From the sequence record OK570374: a stretch of DNA of 64,000 nt. The stretch is one strand, 5' to 3'. Shown piece by piece: positions 1-45,975 of this stretch. The notes under the pieces were generated by a model. That model was not told the DNA's origin. It saw nothing but the letters and a program-made list of their open reading frames with translations, and did not search any database. The position numbers were made by a program, and so were the translations under genes. The DNA is from Escherichia phage UoN_LG358_1. Numbering within the stretch: position 1 is the stretch's first letter; the number at the start of each line of letters is the position of its first letter.

Positions 1-595
1 GTTGCTGTTTTAACAAATCTAAACCAAGATATTCGTTACCAGCGCGAGACAGAATTTTTACATCATCTAATTCATCACCACGAACTTCGGCAAACGCCCT
101 TGCGCCATCGGCCTTAAGCTGTGCAAATGCAGGGAATTTAATATTCTTAAGAATATCTTTTTCGTTATAAGACGAAGCAAGCATTTGTGGTTGTTCTGGA
201 ATTAATCCAGCCCAAACTTTATTTGCAATAGAACGGGATGCACCACAACGAAGGTCACGAAGAAGAACCTTTTTCAATACTTCGCGGTCAGATTCATTCA
301 TTCGTTGTAATGTAGAAGCTAATTTGTCTAAAGCTGCATTTCCAGTTATTTTACGAGTAGCGAACAAATTCTCTAAAACATCTAAAGCAGAATTCAAAGA
401 AAATTGAGTTGCATTAGGCAGATAGCAATCTGGATTATTCCACTTCTTGATGTAATATTGAAGTTTTCCGTCATAAGTCATTCGAAATACGCGCTTTAAA
501 ACTTCATTATCTTTATTGCGACGAATGATTGCTTCTTTTTCTTTGGTAGAACCTATGGCTGCAATTTCATTAATAATATCTAAAATCATATTCAT
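1..595 (-). CDS. 30: DNA ligase (gp30), N-terminal ~198 codons; gene continues past window start
   Basis: - strand translation from ATG at 595 (MNMILDIINEIAAIGSTKEKEAI...FPAFAQLKADGARAFAEVRGDELDD) matches the T4 DNA ligase N-terminus as recalled; position next to rIII/31 region. Confidence 0.85.
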   Translation of the reverse strand, partial: MNMILDIINEIAAIGSTKEKEAIIRRNKDNEVLKRVFRMTYDGKLQYYIKKWNNPDCYLPNATQFSLNSALDVLENLFATRKITGNAALDKLASTLQRMNESDREVLKKVLLRDLRCGASRSIANKVWAGLIPEQPQMLASSYNEKDILKNIKFPAFAQLKADGARAFAEVRGDELDDVKILSRAGNEYLGLDLLKQQ

Positions 596-646
596 CTTCT
601 CTGTTTATAAGGATACAACTATTTTATCATATCCAGATTAAAGCTT

Positions 647-1267
647 TTAAATATTCACGTCATGCCAGCTTTTGACGTAATTGCACTCTAATTTAGGTTC
701 ATGGTTCCTTTCACCGCGAGGCATGTAAAACACCTTCGCTCGAGAATTATACTGTTTGAACACCGCTGCTGCGGAATCAGTATGTTTGCCCAAGTCATCA
801 ACGTAACAAACGACACGCTCACCATATTTTTCCATTACCTGGGTTAATAGAGCATCCTTAGATGCATTATAATCACATACTAATATTTCTTTAAATGCTC
901 CCGGAAAAAGCGCATTTAAATTAAACTGGCGATTTAGATGAGCATCAACTGAGTTACCTAACGCAGTAACCGCAACGAAATCATAAGTTTTCTTTAATTC
1001 GTTAACAACTTTCAACGCATCTTCATAAACTGATAGATACCGTATAAAATCTGAGTTGTTATATTTTAACAAAAGTTTGGTTGCGAATTCTTCTGAACAA
1101 TTAAAAAGAACTCCAGGAGCAATAAATTTTTCATCAACCATCATTTCAAGAATGTGGTTTAATGGAAGATTATATTTCTGGGCAAAATATGGCAAACCGC
1201 TTTGCCACTTAACCAAAATTCCATCAACGTCAGTAACAATTACTGGCTTTTCTTGTTCCAAAATCAT
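647..1267 (-). CDS. HAD-superfamily hydrolase-like protein (possible nucleotidase)
   Basis: 206 aa ORF; N-terminal VTDVDGIL resembles HAD motif I (DxDG); function inferred only from motif. Confidence 0.5.
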   Translation of the reverse strand: MILEQEKPVIVTDVDGILVKWQSGLPYFAQKYNLPLNHILEMMVDEKFIAPGVLFNCSEEFATKLLLKYNNSDFIRYLSVYEDALKVVNELKKTYDFVAVTALGNSVDAHLNRQFNLNALFPGAFKEILVCDYNASKDALLTQVMEKYGERVVCYVDDLGKHTDSAAAVFKQYNSRAKVFYMPRGERNHEPKLECNYVKSWHDVNI

Positions 1268-2314: not shown

Positions 2315-2803
2315 TTAGACAAAACTTATTTTGACAGTTTTCTTAGCTTCTAGCTTAAGCTCTGTGATAAAAACACGATAATTATCACTTGGTGCCATAC
2401 GTAGTTCTTCTGCAATTTTCTTGGCTTTTTCTAAAGTAAAGAGGTTCTTTTCATTTTCTTTAAAAACGACTGCACTTCCACATTCAAGAGAGCGAACAAC
2501 CATGAATGTTTCAGGTCCTTCAGTCTCAGATTTAAACTCAATTTTTCCTTGATATACTTCATCAAAATCAAACAGGTTCCAGCCATTCCACTGCGAACCA
2601 CAATCTGCACCATCATAACGACCGCGAAATTGAGCGTCCAAAAATTCTACTTCAGTGATACACTTTCCACCAACGGATACTTTAGTGGCTTTAAGCCAAG
2701 CATTTCCGAACAAACATTTGATTTTGGCGTCAAATGAGTTCAAATCGACATCCCATTTATCAGTCATACGGAATACATCACCAACTTCAAAACATGTTTT
2801 CAT
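2315..2803 (-). CDS. hypothetical early protein (162 aa)
   Basis: ORF preceded by early-promoter module at 2853-2882. Confidence 0.5.
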   Translation of the reverse strand: MKTCFEVGDVFRMTDKWDVDLNSFDAKIKCLFGNAWLKATKVSVGGKCITEVEFLDAQFRGRYDGADCGSQWNGWNLFDFDEVYQGKIEFKSETEGPETFMVVRSLECGSAVVFKENEKNLFTLEKAKKIAEELRMAPSDNYRVFITELKLEAKKTVKISFV

Positions 2804-2852
2804 AATTTCCTCATTAAATTTAAACTAAGGCGGTATTGGTTATTGAGTTTAT

Positions 2853-2882
2853 ACTATAACACACTTTTATGCTGATGTAAAC
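2853..2882 (-). promoter_or_regulatory. T4-type early promoter (GTTTAC-N18-TATAGT)
   Basis: - strand GTTTAC at 2882..2877, TATAGT at 2858..2853. Confidence 0.6.
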
Positions 2883-2894
2883 GGCAGACTTTAG

Positions 2895-2924
2895 AAACAA
2901 AAAAGGGACTCCCGAAGGAGTCCC
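2895..2924 (-). terminator. intrinsic terminator (GGGACUCC-UUCG-GGAGUCCC + U-run on - strand)
   Basis: perfect 8-bp GC-rich stem with UUCG loop followed by U-tract in - strand sense, just downstream of small basic ORF. Confidence 0.6.
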
Positions 2925-2934
2925 TAACATTGCT

Positions 2935-3114
2935 TTATGCTTTCTTACGCGGATTACCAAAAGCAGCATCATGAGCAAGAACTTTACGAGCACGAGATGC
3001 TAGCTGGTCAGCCAATGGATTGATACGAGAGTTAGACCCACGCTTGTAGCCAGCGCGTTTAGAGGTACCAACAACTTCTTTTACTGCGGTTTTTGCTTTA
3101 GATTGCTTAGCCAT
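2935..3114 (-). CDS. small basic protein (59 aa, Lys/Arg-rich)
   Basis: ORF below the 60-aa cutoff of the track, found by reading the - strand: MAKQSKAKTAVKEVVGTSKRAGYKRGSNSRINPLADQLASRARKVLAHDAAFGNPRKKA; own terminator. Confidence 0.45.
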   Translation of the reverse strand: MAKQSKAKTAVKEVVGTSKRAGYKRGSNSRINPLADQLASRARKVLAHDAAFGNPRKKA

Positions 3115-3267
3115 TTTAATATTCCATATTCGGAGTAATACAACGAACTGGTCTTATTGACATTGCCAGTTCTCAAGCCCTCGAAGGGTACTTAGCACTT
3201 TGGTAGCTTACACCCAAGGTTTTGAATTGTTAACGTGGTGATAACCTTGAACGTCCACATCATACAG

Positions 3268-3516
3268 TTACTTCAAAGTAACCACAAAATGACGAACTGC
3301 CTTACGAGCTGAACTGCATAAGCCTTTAGCGAATTTTAATTCGTCTTTTAAAAGAAGAGCATCACGAAAATCAGCTTGCACTGGATTAAGGTGTTTAAAC
3401 CCTTTCAGTACTTCAAGAGCTTCGGCCAATACATCAATTGATGCGCCGTAGTTTTCATGACCTGCATTCCAGGCAGTGCGTTGCAGAGAAAGAGCGTGTT
3501 CAAGTTGTTTGTTCAT
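3268..3516 (-). CDS. rIII-like protein (82 aa), positional assignment
   Basis: 82 aa ORF next to gene 31 where T4 carries rIII; same length as I recall for rIII; sequence identity not verified. Confidence 0.4.
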   Translation of the reverse strand: MNKQLEHALSLQRTAWNAGHENYGASIDVLAEALEVLKGFKHLNPVQADFRDALLLKDELKFAKGLCSSARKAVRHFVVTLK

Positions 3517-3617
3517 TTAAAAAGCCTCAAATGAGGTGAATAAAAGGAAGGCGGTATAAGAAGTTTAATCCCTGCGCCTTCCACCATGTAATCAGAAAGA
3601 TTACAATAATATTTATA

Positions 3618-3941
3618 TCACTTATAAACGCACGCTAACGATTTATAATGACAAGTAACAAATTTTTGTTTAATTTCTTTAGGCTGCTTAATGCCTAACG
3701 CAACCAATGGATGAGTTACATTGCGAATATTACCAACTGGTAGCGGAGTTAAATCACCAACTTCTACGAAGCCAGCGGGTACATCAGCACCAATTGAATA
3801 TACTTCACACATTTCAGGAAGTTGGCCCTGAATTTCTTTACCCAAGAAAATACCCGAATCTGAAATTTTTTCATCACCAGATTGTGCTGGTTCTGATACC
3901 AAAATAACAAATTCGCCTAGAGCTTTAATAGGAAGTTCCAT
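3618..3941 (-). CDS. 31: co-chaperonin GroES homologue gp31
   Basis: 107 aa; ...[18 protein letters not shown]...[39 protein letters not shown] closely matches recalled T4 gp31. Confidence 0.85.
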
Positions 3942-14585: not shown

Positions 14586-14611
14586 ACTAAAATGGCAGCC
14601 CGAAGGCTGCC
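14586..14611 (-). terminator. intrinsic terminator (GGCAGCC-UUCG-GGCUGCC + U-rich)
   Basis: hairpin followed by U-rich tract in - strand sense, upstream of nrdA. Confidence 0.5.
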
Positions 14612-42917: not shown

Positions 42918-43112
42918 TGTTATTACCATGTGGCTTTTGACACCATACCTGTAACTTTCTTCAAAGAGTTGTCCGGCTGACGAACACGAATAGTAGCTAT
43001 ATCGCCAGGGAGAGGAAGAGCATCTCCCCACATATAACCGAAACTTCCATCTACAAGCGTTACCCAGATTTGTGACATATACTCTCCTATACGGGCGGAA
43101 TGCCCGTATTAT

Positions 43113-43460
43113 TTATTCACTCATCCAGACCTTGCGAGGAGCCGCATCATTACCCATAACCATTTCAAAAAGTTCTTTCCAATTTGGCGGCAATGACACT
43201 ACGTCATAAACCGGTTGCTGAATAACTCGTTCATATTCATCTTCTTCCAAAGAACCAAGTCCTTTGATGTAACGAAGTTTCCATCCAGCAAGTTTATCTT
43301 TTTCAGCTTCATATTCGGCGGCATTGTAATACCATTTTTGTTCAGAGCCCTTTGACATAATAATCACTGGGGTTTTAACAAACCGAATACGTCCTTCTTC
43401 GAACAATTTCGGCCAATTAGCAAAGAACGCTAGCAGGCTTGGATAAATTGACCCTGTGCC
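43113..43460 (-). CDS. 60: gp60 (topoisomerase II subunit) distal coding segment, starting at landing codon GGC 43460..43458
   Basis: ...TGSIYPSLLAFFANWPKLFEEGRIRFVKTPVII...RYIKGLGSLEEDEYERVIQQPVYDVV...ELFEMVMGNDAAPRKVWMSE matches recalled T4 gp60 after the bypass; has no ATG, the track uses an in-gap TTG. Confidence 0.7.
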   Translation of the reverse strand, partial: GTGSIYPSLLAFFANWPKLFEEGRIRFVKTPVIIMSKGSEQKWYYNAAEYEAEKDKLAGWKLRYIKGLGSLEEDEYERVIQQPVYDVVSLPPNWKELFEMVMGNDAAPRKVWMSE

Positions 43461-43505
43461 AAATATCTCTATTGTGAGGTATATCAATGATTAGCCCGAA
43501 GGCTA
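43461..43505 (-). other. 60: untranslated coding gap of gene 60 (translational bypass), begins with UAG inside a UUCG-capped hairpin
   Basis: mRNA GAU GGU UAG CCUUCGGGCUAAUCAUUGAUAUACCUCACAAUAGAGAUAUUU GGC ACA GGG UCA; near-identical in layout to the T4 gene 60 gap as recalled. Confidence 0.6.
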
Positions 43506-43640
43506 ACCATCAACATCAGCATCAGTCATGATGGCAATGTTTTTATAATTCAAAGAAGAAGTTGATGTACGACGTACAATTGTCTGGGCTTTATATGATT
43601 TCATATCAATTTCAGTTTCTTTAACTTTAGCAAATTTCAT
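43506..43640 (-). CDS. 60: gp60 proximal coding segment (45 codons, ends at take-off codon GGU)
   Basis: MKFAKVKETEIDMKSYKAQTIVRRTSTSSLNYKNIAIMTDADVDG then UAG; resembles recalled T4 gp60 N-terminus including the basic nascent-peptide signal. Confidence 0.65.
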
Positions 43641-44425
43641 TTAAAACCTCATAAAATTTTTCATCAGGAGTCCAACCGTTTTTAAACTGATTGAACGCGA
43701 TTTTGAACAGTTTCGTTTTGATAGTTATATTATTAACCGTTTTCCATTTAGCAATTCCGGTTTTCTTATAACTAACTGGGTCATAAACGTTAGCATACCA
43801 ATCATAAAGGGACGGAATCAACTTAACTGCGTCTGGATTGGTTTTAGATTTGTTATACCAAGGTTTAGATTTTTCAAGGGCGGCTGCTACTTTTGTAGCG
43901 TTTAACGTGTTACCAACTCCGCATAAACCAAGGTCCTTTATTAAAGGGTCGTCCGTTCTTAGTCTATAGGTTGTGTTATCTTTATCCTTGTAAACTCCGT
44001 ATCCTTTCACACCTTCAAATTTTCTTCCGTAATTTACGCCAACCCAATCTTCTTCAGTGTATTCGCCTTTCGTCAGTAATCGACATTCTCCAGTTTCTTT
44101 ATTTCTAAGTAAAATTTTGTCACGCATGAACTCAGCAGACCAATCTGAAATCATATTAACATAATTTTTCCTGGCTATTTCATAAAGTTTAGAACGAAAT
44201 ATTGTTCCAGAATTCATTATCCGGTTCAAAGCATAAGACATTTCTTTGTTTTTATGAATTTTAAACAATAACCAGTGCGCAATAAAATGTTCGCGATATG
44301 TCAATTTTACCAAATTATCTGAAGTATCTAATCCACCCATGCTTCTTGGAAGTATATGATGAATTTCTCCTTTAACCGGCGGAACCCTGGTTTTACCCCG
44401 GGAAATTAGTTTTTCTATAATTCAT
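43627..44425 (-). pseudogene. mobA-like HNH homing endonuclease, frameshifted
   Basis: ATG at 44425 (MNYRKTNFPG, stop) is +1 out of frame with the HNH body (…KTRVPPVKGEIHHILPRSMGGLDTSDNLV…); frames cross at a CCCGGGG run; the in-frame ORF of the track starts after the first His of the HNH motif. Confidence 0.55.
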
Positions 44426-45975
44426 ACTAAGTCTTTTACTTTTTTCCAGACGCCATCAATAAAAATTTCGTCATTGATATTAACTACAATATCTTCACCG
44501 GCAACATTTACAGTATACCATTGTTCGCCGGCTTCAACTTCCGTGAATGGGTCTTCACCAATGACTAACCCAGTAATTGCACAAATATCAAAGATTTCTT
44601 TGTTTTTCAAAGCATCACCTGCAGACATTCCCCAGGTGTTCATCACTTTACCACGTAATGGATAACCGCCATGAAGGGCACGGTCACGAGTATTAATTAG
44701 ATAACCAATAGCAGAATCACCTTCTGTTAAAAACAAAGTTGTTTCTACTTTATCATTACCATATTCGCCAGCTTTGATGTGTTTATGAACTTTAGCTTTG
44801 GCCGCCTTTTTCGCTGCTTTGGTTTCTGCTGCTTTCTCTGCCGCTAGTTTACGTGCTAATGCAGCTTCAATAATCGGCATTAAAATAGCATCAGATTTCA
44901 TAATCTGATTAGAAATTTTCTTTGCATCGAGATTTAAGTGAGATTTAATTTCGCCCCATGGACTTGTAAGACGCTCTTTGGTTTGCGAGTCAAAGCGCAA
45001 GTTACTCATATCTCGAATAAACATCAACACAGTAAAACACTCTTTAATACGAGCTTTGTTTACTTCAATTTTGTGTTTACGTTTAATAGCCGGAATTAAT
45101 TCATTAGCAATTTCGTCAATAACATAATCAATATGCGAACCGCCATTCTTTGTATGAATGTTGTTAACATAAGTCATTTGACGAAAACCATCTGGAGAAT
45201 TACCTATAGCCAAAGAATAATTTTCTTCATCAATAATGATAGCATTTTTATCATACTGCTTAGAATATTTTTTGAAATTACTATCAACTTTTTTATTGTT
45301 AAATTTAAATTCAATTTTTGGATAAACGACTGCCAATGTCTGTAAACGGTCCAACATAATATCAAAATAAACATCATCAAAATTGTTCATTTCGAAATGG
45401 CTAAAATCTGGAATAAATTCTACCTTAGTTCCTTTATAAGAGGATTTTTTGGATTTCCAAGAAACATTGTCAGAATTATTGCTACAAGAAACTGTTAATT
45501 CATTTTCTCCATCAGATGTTGTACCTTTAAACATAACAGAGAAAATATTAGTCAATGAAGAACCAACACCGTTTTGCCCGCCAGTTTTACGCTCTTCATC
45601 AGCTCCAAAGTTTCCGCCTGCCTTAGTTTTCGTCCATGCTGCTACTGGACCAGGAATTTCTTCACCTTCAGGAGTAGTAACCATAGCCTGTGGAATTCCA
45701 CGGCCATTATCTTCTACGGTCACTTTGCTTGTGGAAGAATCGATATTGACTGAAATTTTATTAGCAAATTTAAAACTTGTACGGATAGCTTCATCAACAG
45801 AGTTATCGATAATTTCATCAATAAGTTTGAGAACGCCAGCTACGTATTGTACCCGCTTAAATTCGCCAAAAACAAAACGCTCATGAAATTCGTTAGATAC
45901 ACTTCCGATGTACATTCCAGGACGCTTAAGAACGTGTTCCTTGTCAGAGAGCATTTGAATTTTATTTTCAATCAT
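44422..45975 (-). CDS. 39: DNA topoisomerase II large subunit gp39 (GyrB ATPase-like)
   Basis: 517 aa; GHKL ATPase motifs (EDNGRGIP, GGQNGVGSS); stop overlaps HNH ATG (ATGA). Confidence 0.9.
   Translation of the reverse strand: MIENKIQMLSDKEHVLKRPGMYIGSVSNEFHERFVFGEFKRVQYVAGVLKLIDEIIDNSVDEAIRTSFKFANKISVNIDSSTSKVTVEDNGRGIPQAMVTTPEGEEIPGPVAAWTKTKAGGNFGADEERKTGGQNGVGSSLTNIFSVMFKGTTSDGENELTVSCSNNSDNVSWKSKKSSYKGTKVEFIPDFSHFEMNNFDDVYFDIMLDRLQTLAVVYPKIEFKFNNKKVDSNFKKYSKQYDKNAIIIDEENYSLAIGNSPDGFRQMTYVNNIHTKNGGSHIDYVIDEIANELIPAIKRKHKIEVNKARIKECFTVLMFIRDMSNLRFDSQTKERLTSPWGEIKSHLNLDAKKISNQIMKSDAILMPIIEAALARKLAAEKAAETKAAKKAAKAKVHKHIKAGEYGNDKVETTLFLTEGDSAIGYLINTRDRALHGGYPLRGKVMNTWGMSAGDALKNKEIFDICAITGLVIGEDPFTEVEAGEQWYTVNVAGEDIVVNINDEIFIDGVWKKVKDLV

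Follow-up and report, generated by a model that had tools for sequence, protein, structure and literature searches.

A probable gene 60-type translational bypass cassette of the S16 type in Escherichia phage UoN_LG358_1

The window analysed here is a stretch of 64,000 nucleotides from Escherichia phage UoN_LG358_1 (sequence record OK570374). On its minus strand the C-terminal part of a topoisomerase II large subunit is encoded in two segments. Segment 1 (43506..43640) comprises 45 codons, an N-terminal extension followed by a homology region, and translates as MKFAKVKETEIDMKSYKAQTIVRRTSTSSLNYKNIAIMTDADVDG (45 aa). It starts at an ATG (43640-43638) and ends with GAT and then, as codon 45, the GGT that would serve as take-off codon (43508-43506). 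Directly adjoining this GGT is a TAG stop (43505-43503), which lies inside the 5′ arm of a hairpin with the tip TAGCC-TTCG-GGCTA (43505-43492). The non-coding gap measures 45 nt (43461..43505), holds in-frame UAG and UAA codons and is AU-rich in its 3′ part. A GAG, the candidate mini Shine-Dalgarno (43467..43469), stands 6 nt upstream of the putative landing codon GGC (43458..43460), at the site where uninterrupted relatives have the single Gly of DVDG-TGS. Segment 2 (43113..43457) supplies the topoisomerase C-terminal part in 114 codons, TGSIYPSLL...WMSE, none of them ATG, and closes with a stop at 43115-43113. The start, tip and final stop were read directly from the strand. From GGT to GGC the hop would cover 48 nt, so both codons lie in the same frame. 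The initial annotation had described this order of ATG 43640, 45 codons, GAU GGU, UAG, hairpin, 45 nt, GAG, GGC and 114 codons, and its layout proved exact to the base. It had also observed that the open reading frame list reaches the distal part only by way of a TTG in the gap; in that list the distal part does begin at TTG 43487.

Only two GGN triplets occur in the gap, GGG at gap nucleotides 9-11 and GGC at 10-12, both within the hairpin, and inspection of the gap sequence found no GG in its 3′ part. The internal GGC (43494-43496) sits in the 3′ arm of the take-off hairpin and is followed by TAA (43491-43493). It is a decoy fully cognate for the tRNA taking off, and landing there would be unproductive, with UAA next. 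This hidden GGC of the S16 type parallels the internal GGG 9-11 of T4, which the T4 literature describes as becoming a landing site once the normal site is destroyed. A tRNA scan of the 64-kb window found none, hence no phage tRNA-Gly lies within it.

A blastn search of about 50,700 phage genomes matched the region to Salmonella phage S16 and its relatives (genus Gelderlandvirus), and also to T4 gene 60, where the T4 record labels the aligned stretch "non-coding translational bypass region". In the nucleotide alignment with T4 gene 60 that the initial annotation had proposed as a check, both segments prove homologous to gp60, and the gap can be matched to the T4 coding gap base for base, minus 2 nt. 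The gap is identical to that of T4 at 39 of 48 aligned positions (81%), as against 68% for the flanking coding DNA; with Proteus phage Pm5461 it shares 41 of 48 aligned positions. Between clades more generally, the gap is 81-85% identical (T4, Proteus) and the flanking coding DNA 65-71%. Conservation is tighter still within the S16 clade, where the gap shows no differences in 45 positions and the adjacent element-encoded coding segment differs at 6 of 45 third positions. The gap is identical in the window, S16 and SEA1, and the independent isolates S16, UTK0003, AKM_NP4 and SEA1 all carry it unchanged. The alignments show that this gap and the coding gap of T4 gene 60 are homologues.

Both gp60 coding segments are intact. 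In S16 and SEA1 the segment 1 peptide is unchanged (100% identity), and in T4 it is 59% identical; all 6 nucleotide differences of segment 1 from S16 are synonymous, and across both segments the differences fall mostly in third codon positions. Segment 1 also contains the nascent-peptide signal, KSYKAQTIVRRTSTSS...MT. Its residues Y16, Q19, V22, R24, Y32, M38 and T39 match residues reported as conserved, which in T4 are numbered Y16, Q19, V22, R24, Y33, M39 and T40 in the part of the Manning & Atkins preprint available to us (bioRxiv 10.1101/2022.08.31.505936). The segment 2 protein is 100% identical to the STP4-a C-terminus, which bears out the assignment of the distal reading frame to the C-terminal part of a topoisomerase; its TOPRIM_C match (E 8e-6) lies just under the Pfam cutoff.

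The insertion falls at the Gly codon of the DADxDG Toprim motif, and a hop from GGT to GGC restores the uninterrupted sequence. Two close relatives without the interruption, STP4-a and Melville, read DADVDGTGSIYPS continuously, with GAT GTT GAC GGA ACA GGG TCA (DVDG-TGS) at the insertion site, and the topoisomerase gene of STML-198 is likewise in one piece. For the predicted junction, ...DADVDG|TGSIYPS..., the junction peptide would be ...MTDADVDGTGSIYPSLL... and the spanning stretch IAIMTDADVDGTGSIYPSLLAFFANWPK. This junction had been foreseen in the initial annotation and is the exact sequence of the uninterrupted orthologues. Over residues 478-608 of the STP4-a Topo2L protein, the hop product is identical at 131 of 131 positions, and the alignment crosses the junction without a gap. 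No other single observation speaks as strongly for the junction as this match, a comparison of predicted proteins. For annotation it would mean that gene 60 should be entered as a single joined CDS, not as two ORFs or as a fragment started at TTG.

The take-off stem-loop (43486..43511, minus strand) has a stem of 10-11 bp capped by a UUCG tetraloop and a predicted folding energy of -14.2 kcal/mol. It contains both the take-off GGT and the UAG, with the take-off codon in its 5′ arm. The hairpin first described was thus correct in sequence and too short in extent, since the stem (43511-43486) reaches past the tip to include the take-off codon. When six cassette types are compared, every cell of the 10-bp stem is paired (100%), 4 of the 10 pairs have undergone compensatory changes, and none of 500 shuffles equalled the observed covariation score. 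The third base of the take-off codon forms a U-A pair in the window and S16, Thanatos-1 and the KARL-1 group, an A-U pair in T4 and HY01, and a G-C pair in the Proteus phages. The initial annotation had seen covariation in the GGU/GGC pair itself; the true covariation links the third base of the take-off codon to the base it pairs with in the 3′ arm.

The architecture as a whole goes far beyond what chance would give. The window has a single exact copy of the 14-mer hairpin; when up to 2 mismatches are allowed there are 2 matches, with 0.2 expected. The sole other near match is a second UUCG-tetraloop hairpin, CAGCCTTCGGGCTG, at 14596-14609, probably a T4-like stabilising hairpin or terminator of generic type. 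We considered whether the hairpin at the gap is itself an intrinsic terminator and rejected this: no T-run stands behind the stem (the tail is AATCATTGATAT) and the terminator scan was silent. Nor was a minus-strand promoter found near the gap. An Rfam scan of 43000-44000 at a permissive threshold gave sub-threshold snoRNA-like noise only, with no family for the element.

Directly upstream of the take-off stem-loop, a 5′ stem-loop (43512..43541, minus strand) is predicted at -8.3 kcal/mol in the window, -9.5 in S16 and -8.7 in Pm5461, whereas the parental STP4-a/Melville DNA for the same residues folds at only -2.4 kcal/mol. A further structure, a 9-bp GC-rich hairpin (ATACGGGC-ATT-GCCCGTAT, minus strand, 43089-43109), lies right behind the gene 60 stop and just ahead of the AGGAG ribosome-binding site of the next ORF; the scan scored it as terminator-like on the plus strand only.

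Alignment with S16, SEA1, STP4-a and Melville places the cassette at the end of a larger MobA mobile element (43462..44551, minus strand). The element combines a C-terminal extension, the mobA gene, an N-terminal extension that includes a replacement homology region, and the bypass cassette, a layout that agrees with the one given in the preprint of Manning & Atkins. The uninterrupted relatives either lack this whole stretch or have other sequence in its place. Upstream, a gene 39-type ORF1 of 517 aa (44422..45975, minus strand) encodes the N-terminal part of the topoisomerase II large subunit, with Pfam matches to DNA_gyraseB and HATPase_c. Its similarity to the uninterrupted STP4-a/Melville gene breaks at 44551, and its C-terminal extension (about 44551-44425) is encoded by the element.

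The mobA homing-endonuclease gene (43627..44425, minus strand) is disrupted by an 11-nt deletion with its junction at 44416/44415. Relative to S16, GTTTGATATAT is lost after ATGAATTATA (44415-44425, minus strand), and the frame shifts after 3 codons when compared with the 269-aa S16 MobA. The remnant ORF (43627-44340) has its first canonical start at ATG 44340, past the histidines of EIHHILPRS. It matches the phrog_655 homing endonuclease family (E 7e-34) only from profile position 59. A Pfam search of MobA gave no match at E 0.01; weak, sub-threshold HNH matches span the lost start in the N-terminal stretch. Either mobA is a recently inactivated homing endonuclease or the deletion is a sequencing error; the bypass cassette beside it is intact. 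Frameshifted mobA genes are also known from the literature in T4, KARL-1 and Aes012, and SEA1 has lost most of mobA and kept the gap. An intact bypass next to a freshly broken mobA would agree with published accounts in which the endonuclease decays and the gap is kept.

Over 3.1 kb the element shares 98% identity with S16, while for 24 kb of the backbone no Gelderlandvirus in the phage collection comes closer than about 90-91%, a pattern that fits a mobile element. STP4-a, itself without the insert, matches the topoisomerase flanks at 99.1% identity. Compared with the same collection, window positions 20000-46000 form a mosaic, which suggests, from these identities, a recent transfer of the element or recombination in an otherwise distinct phage. 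The element boundaries, like the homology, the junction, the signals and the covariation, can be read directly in the sequence.

From these comparisons we consider it very probable that an S16-like Salmonella phage (Gelderlandvirus) has here a MobA homing-endonuclease element in its gene for the topoisomerase II large subunit, and that the locus is the bypass cassette of this element. By its organization this is the same element that separates genes 39 and 60 in T4. The features that had suggested a T4 gene 60 architecture, namely the take-off Gly, the adjacent UAG, the UUCG stem-loop, the GAG and the nascent-peptide residues, are all present. The bypass interpretation is supported, as far as sequence comparison can carry it, because the gap and both segments are homologous to T4 gp60 and the hop product equals the uninterrupted protein.

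What the ribosome would do at this locus is modelled at every step on T4, where bypassing of the gap on unspliced mRNA is established in the literature. On reaching GGU at codon 45, the ribosome would hold peptidyl-tRNA-Gly (anticodon GCC) in the P site, with UAG occupying the A site. Termination would be hindered by the nascent peptide (KSYKAQTIVRR...MT) inside the exit tunnel and by the UUCG stem-loop forming at the A site. The tRNA would then let go of GGU and remain on the ribosome, which would slide across the 45 nt without decoding, in T4 by means of EF-G-driven pseudotranslocation (described in PMC6551183). Upstream of the landing site, GAG may act in the role described for it in T4 bypassing, both in the accessible part of the Manning & Atkins preprint and in the T4 literature. 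The tRNA would re-pair at GGC and decoding would restart at ACA, giving a single protein of 159 aa, ...DADVDG-TGSIYPS..., with its Toprim motif restored. At the level of DNA, the gap in T4 keeps a genome that carries the element safe from cleavage by the MobA it encodes. With mobA broken in the window, this protective role may no longer matter here. Our literature search found no experimental demonstration of bypassing on the S16-type GGU/GGC pair.

The alternative that survives best has the 45-aa ORF stop at UAG and a distal ORF of 124 aa begin independently at TTG 43487. The two polypeptides would join gp39 and gp52 non-covalently, much as the split gp39 and gp60 already do, and the distal product would begin M(L)IYLTIEIFGTGS... 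The TTG shares the frame of the distal ORF, and no stop intervenes ahead of the landing codon, as is also the case in the Proteus phages; many GenBank records of S16-type, Proteus and Acinetobacter cassettes annotate two CDSs, and about half of T4 ribosomes are reported to terminate at the gap. However, TTG 43487 has no upstream Shine-Dalgarno, and its first base is held in the 3′ arm of the -14 kcal/mol stem. T4, in which bypass is proven, has no TTG at this place, and by our count the TTG of HY01 is out of frame with the landing codon. An independent start would also leave unexplained the codon pairs read by the same tRNA, the spacing of GAG and the absence of GG from the gap's 3′ part, and the distal piece alone would miss the DADVDG metal-binding motif. 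We therefore regard an independent start as unlikely, and give this account little weight.

Still less credible is a pseudogene or assembly artefact, in which a 48-nt insertion has broken the topoisomerase C-terminal gene and no functional protein is made. Decay does occur in this element, as the true disruption of neighbouring mobA attests, but a dead gene would not be expected to keep a gap identical among S16, UTK0003, AKM_NP4 and SEA1, intact coding segments that differ mostly at third positions, and a distal protein 100% identical to that of STP4-a; the cassette has, moreover, been kept across six phage clades with compensatory changes in its stem. Removal of the gap from the RNA by splicing or processing, leaving the ribosome a continuous mRNA to read, is the most remote of these accounts: T-even phages do carry self-splicing introns in other genes, but 45 nt is far below the size of a group I or group II intron, the region matches no Rfam family, and the homologous T4 gap is bypassed, according to the literature, on unspliced mRNA.

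Returning to translational bypassing, programmed long-range bypassing is among the most extreme departures from triplet decoding, and to our knowledge T4 gene 60 was its only phage example for decades. The cassette resembles that of T4 in its insertion at the Gly of DADxDG followed by UAG, an identical TAGCC-TTCG-GGCTA tip, a GAG 6 nt before landing (GAG-AUUAUU-GGA in T4), a homologous nascent-peptide motif and the MobA context. It differs in its codons, GGU/GGC read by tRNA-Gly(GCC), where T4 has GGA/GGA, the pair given in the initial annotation, read by tRNA-Gly(UCC). Between the codons T4 has 47 nt and the window 45, so that the T4 hop is 50 nt and that of the window 48 nt and in frame. The T4 N-terminal peptide has 46 aa compared with 45, and the lower-stem pairs differ in a compensatory manner.

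The closest counterpart is S16, whose cassette has the same 45-nt gap, GGT take-off, GGC landing and 45-aa N-terminal peptide. S16 differs in that its mobA lacks the 11-nt frameshifting deletion, and the topoisomerase flanks of the window are nearer to STP4-a (99.1%) than to S16. Related cassettes in Proteus phages Pm5461 and SJ_PmiM, Acinetobacter phages KARL-1, fHyAci03 and Stupor, Thanatos-1 and Aes012 share the element, the site, the logic of the stem-loop and codon pairs read by one tRNA. These cassettes from Proteus, Acinetobacter, Shewanella and Aeromonas phages have other codon pairs and spacings, with the S16 type as one point in the range. Outside phages, the literature describes programmed bypassing of 'byp' elements in Magnusiomyces capitatus mitochondria, with inserts of 27-55 nt and matched or wobble-tolerant codons; by description these stand apart, being unrelated in sequence, belonging to another mobile element and having no MobA or topoisomerase context.

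Such diversity has been surveyed by Manning & Atkins (bioRxiv 10.1101/2022.08.31.505936, 2022), whose tally stands at 28 cassettes from genomes and 13 from metagenomes. Their preprint covers the MobA element, the stem-loop covariation, the mini Shine-Dalgarno and the conservation of the peptide, and it names "GGU/GGC in ... S16". Hence the natural variant of a rare recoding element that the initial annotation proposed is not a new one: the S16-type GGU/GGC cassette is real and already known. Natural variants reveal which signals are essential, and the S16 type has a different tRNA, another gap length and another relation between the frames, with the rest kept. This comparative point has already been made for the S16 cassette in the literature. 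The addition made by the window is modest, namely one more genome with the element, its backbone sharing about 90% identity with known Gelderlandviruses.

The GenBank phage collection yielded 17 cassettes from six clades. T4 and HY01 use GGA/GGA, and the Proteus phages (Pm5461, SJ_PmiM) use GGG/GGA with 48 nt between the codons and a hop of 51 nt. In the S16 type, GGU/GGC are separated by 45 nt and the hop is 48 nt. By our counts, Stupor and LemonAid pair GGU (next codon AGG) with GGC across 39 nt, the Acinetobacter KARL-1 group GAU with GAC across 40 nt, and Shewanella phage Thanatos-1 GGU with GGU across 49 nt. The Aeromonas phages (Aes012) have GAC/GAC, which we count as 14 nt apart. The Aes012 record annotates a bypass region of 17 nt, landing codon included, and the available part of the preprint gives 20 nt for the Aeromonas clade (Manning & Atkins, bioRxiv 10.1101/2022.08.31.505936). 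Hops in the remaining clades range, as counted, from 17 to 52 nt. We rejected the idea that an in-frame hop of 48 nt is special, given that the 51-nt hop of Proteus and the 54-nt hop of metagenomic locus L142 (see below) are also in frame and that lengths vary widely.

In all 17 cassettes, one tRNA can read both codons. GGU and GGC are both decoded by tRNA-Gly(GCC), which agrees with the initial remark that a single tRNA-Gly suffices here. Where the two codons are unmatched, every cassette examined goes from a take-off codon read by wobble to a landing codon read by Watson-Crick pairing: GGU to GGC in the S16 type and in Stupor and LemonAid, GGG to GGA in Proteus and L142, and GAU to GAC in the KARL-1 group. 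It is tempting to speculate that unmatched pairs are tuned and not merely tolerated, in that they would help the tRNA to leave the take-off codon and to be caught at the landing codon. We regard this as rather doubtful. The unmatched pairs represent few independent events, and pairing in the stem sets a further limit on the take-off base. If true, the S16 type would offer a natural experiment on bypassing with tRNA-Gly(GCC), its fully cognate decoy GGC hidden in the hairpin. We did not find the wobble to Watson-Crick direction remarked on in the accessible part of the 2022 preprint by Manning & Atkins.

Metagenomic data added little to this collection. Scanning IMG/VR for the 14-mer hairpin returned at least 120 loci, in which the UUCG hairpin was generic and the gene 60 context was found only in Pm5461; more specific patterns gave Pm5461 again or nothing. 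IMG/VR is therefore poor in gene 60-type cassettes. A metagenome scan for MTDADxDG followed by TAG found 4 loci, T4 itself and those we call L139, L141 and L142. Two of these were rejected as cassettes, both being bacterial-type gyrB with no hairpin or gap: L139 (3067-3093) has an in-frame TAG after DADVDG, and L141 (3527-3553) has a 2-nt insertion after DADVDG. These lesions are probably errors or pseudogenes.

The remaining locus, L142 (Ga0209174_10012078, 480-860, minus strand), is a genuine though divergent cassette in a split topoisomerase, with ORFs at 842-2431, 625-780 and 205-558. Its C- and N-terminal extensions are recognisable, and it has a GGG take-off, a TAGCC-TTCG-GGCTA hairpin, a 51-nt gap and GAG 6 nt before a GGA landing codon. 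The junction would read DADVDG|FHITGLILN after an in-frame hop of 54 nt. No endonuclease gene lies between its split-topoisomerase ORFs, and an upstream ORF of 422 aa (2501-3769) has sub-threshold DUF559/Vsr-like matches. L142 may belong to one of the metagenomic clades of the preprint, the available part of which lists GGG/GGA only for Proteus.

Public annotations of these cassettes vary. The halves of gene 60 are entered as separate CDSs in S16 (HQ331142; our locus L001, 3021-3548), Pm5461 (L004), AC4 (L005) and SEA1 (L006), and also in Stupor, LemonAid, KARL-1, DLP2, phi1_092060 and Thanatos-1. Bypassing is mentioned only in T4-type records, Aes012, HY01 and fHyAci03. On the bypass reading, most records of S16-type, Proteus and Acinetobacter cassettes would misannotate gene 60, and in the two-CDS records the distal CDS is often begun at an internal TTG or ATG.
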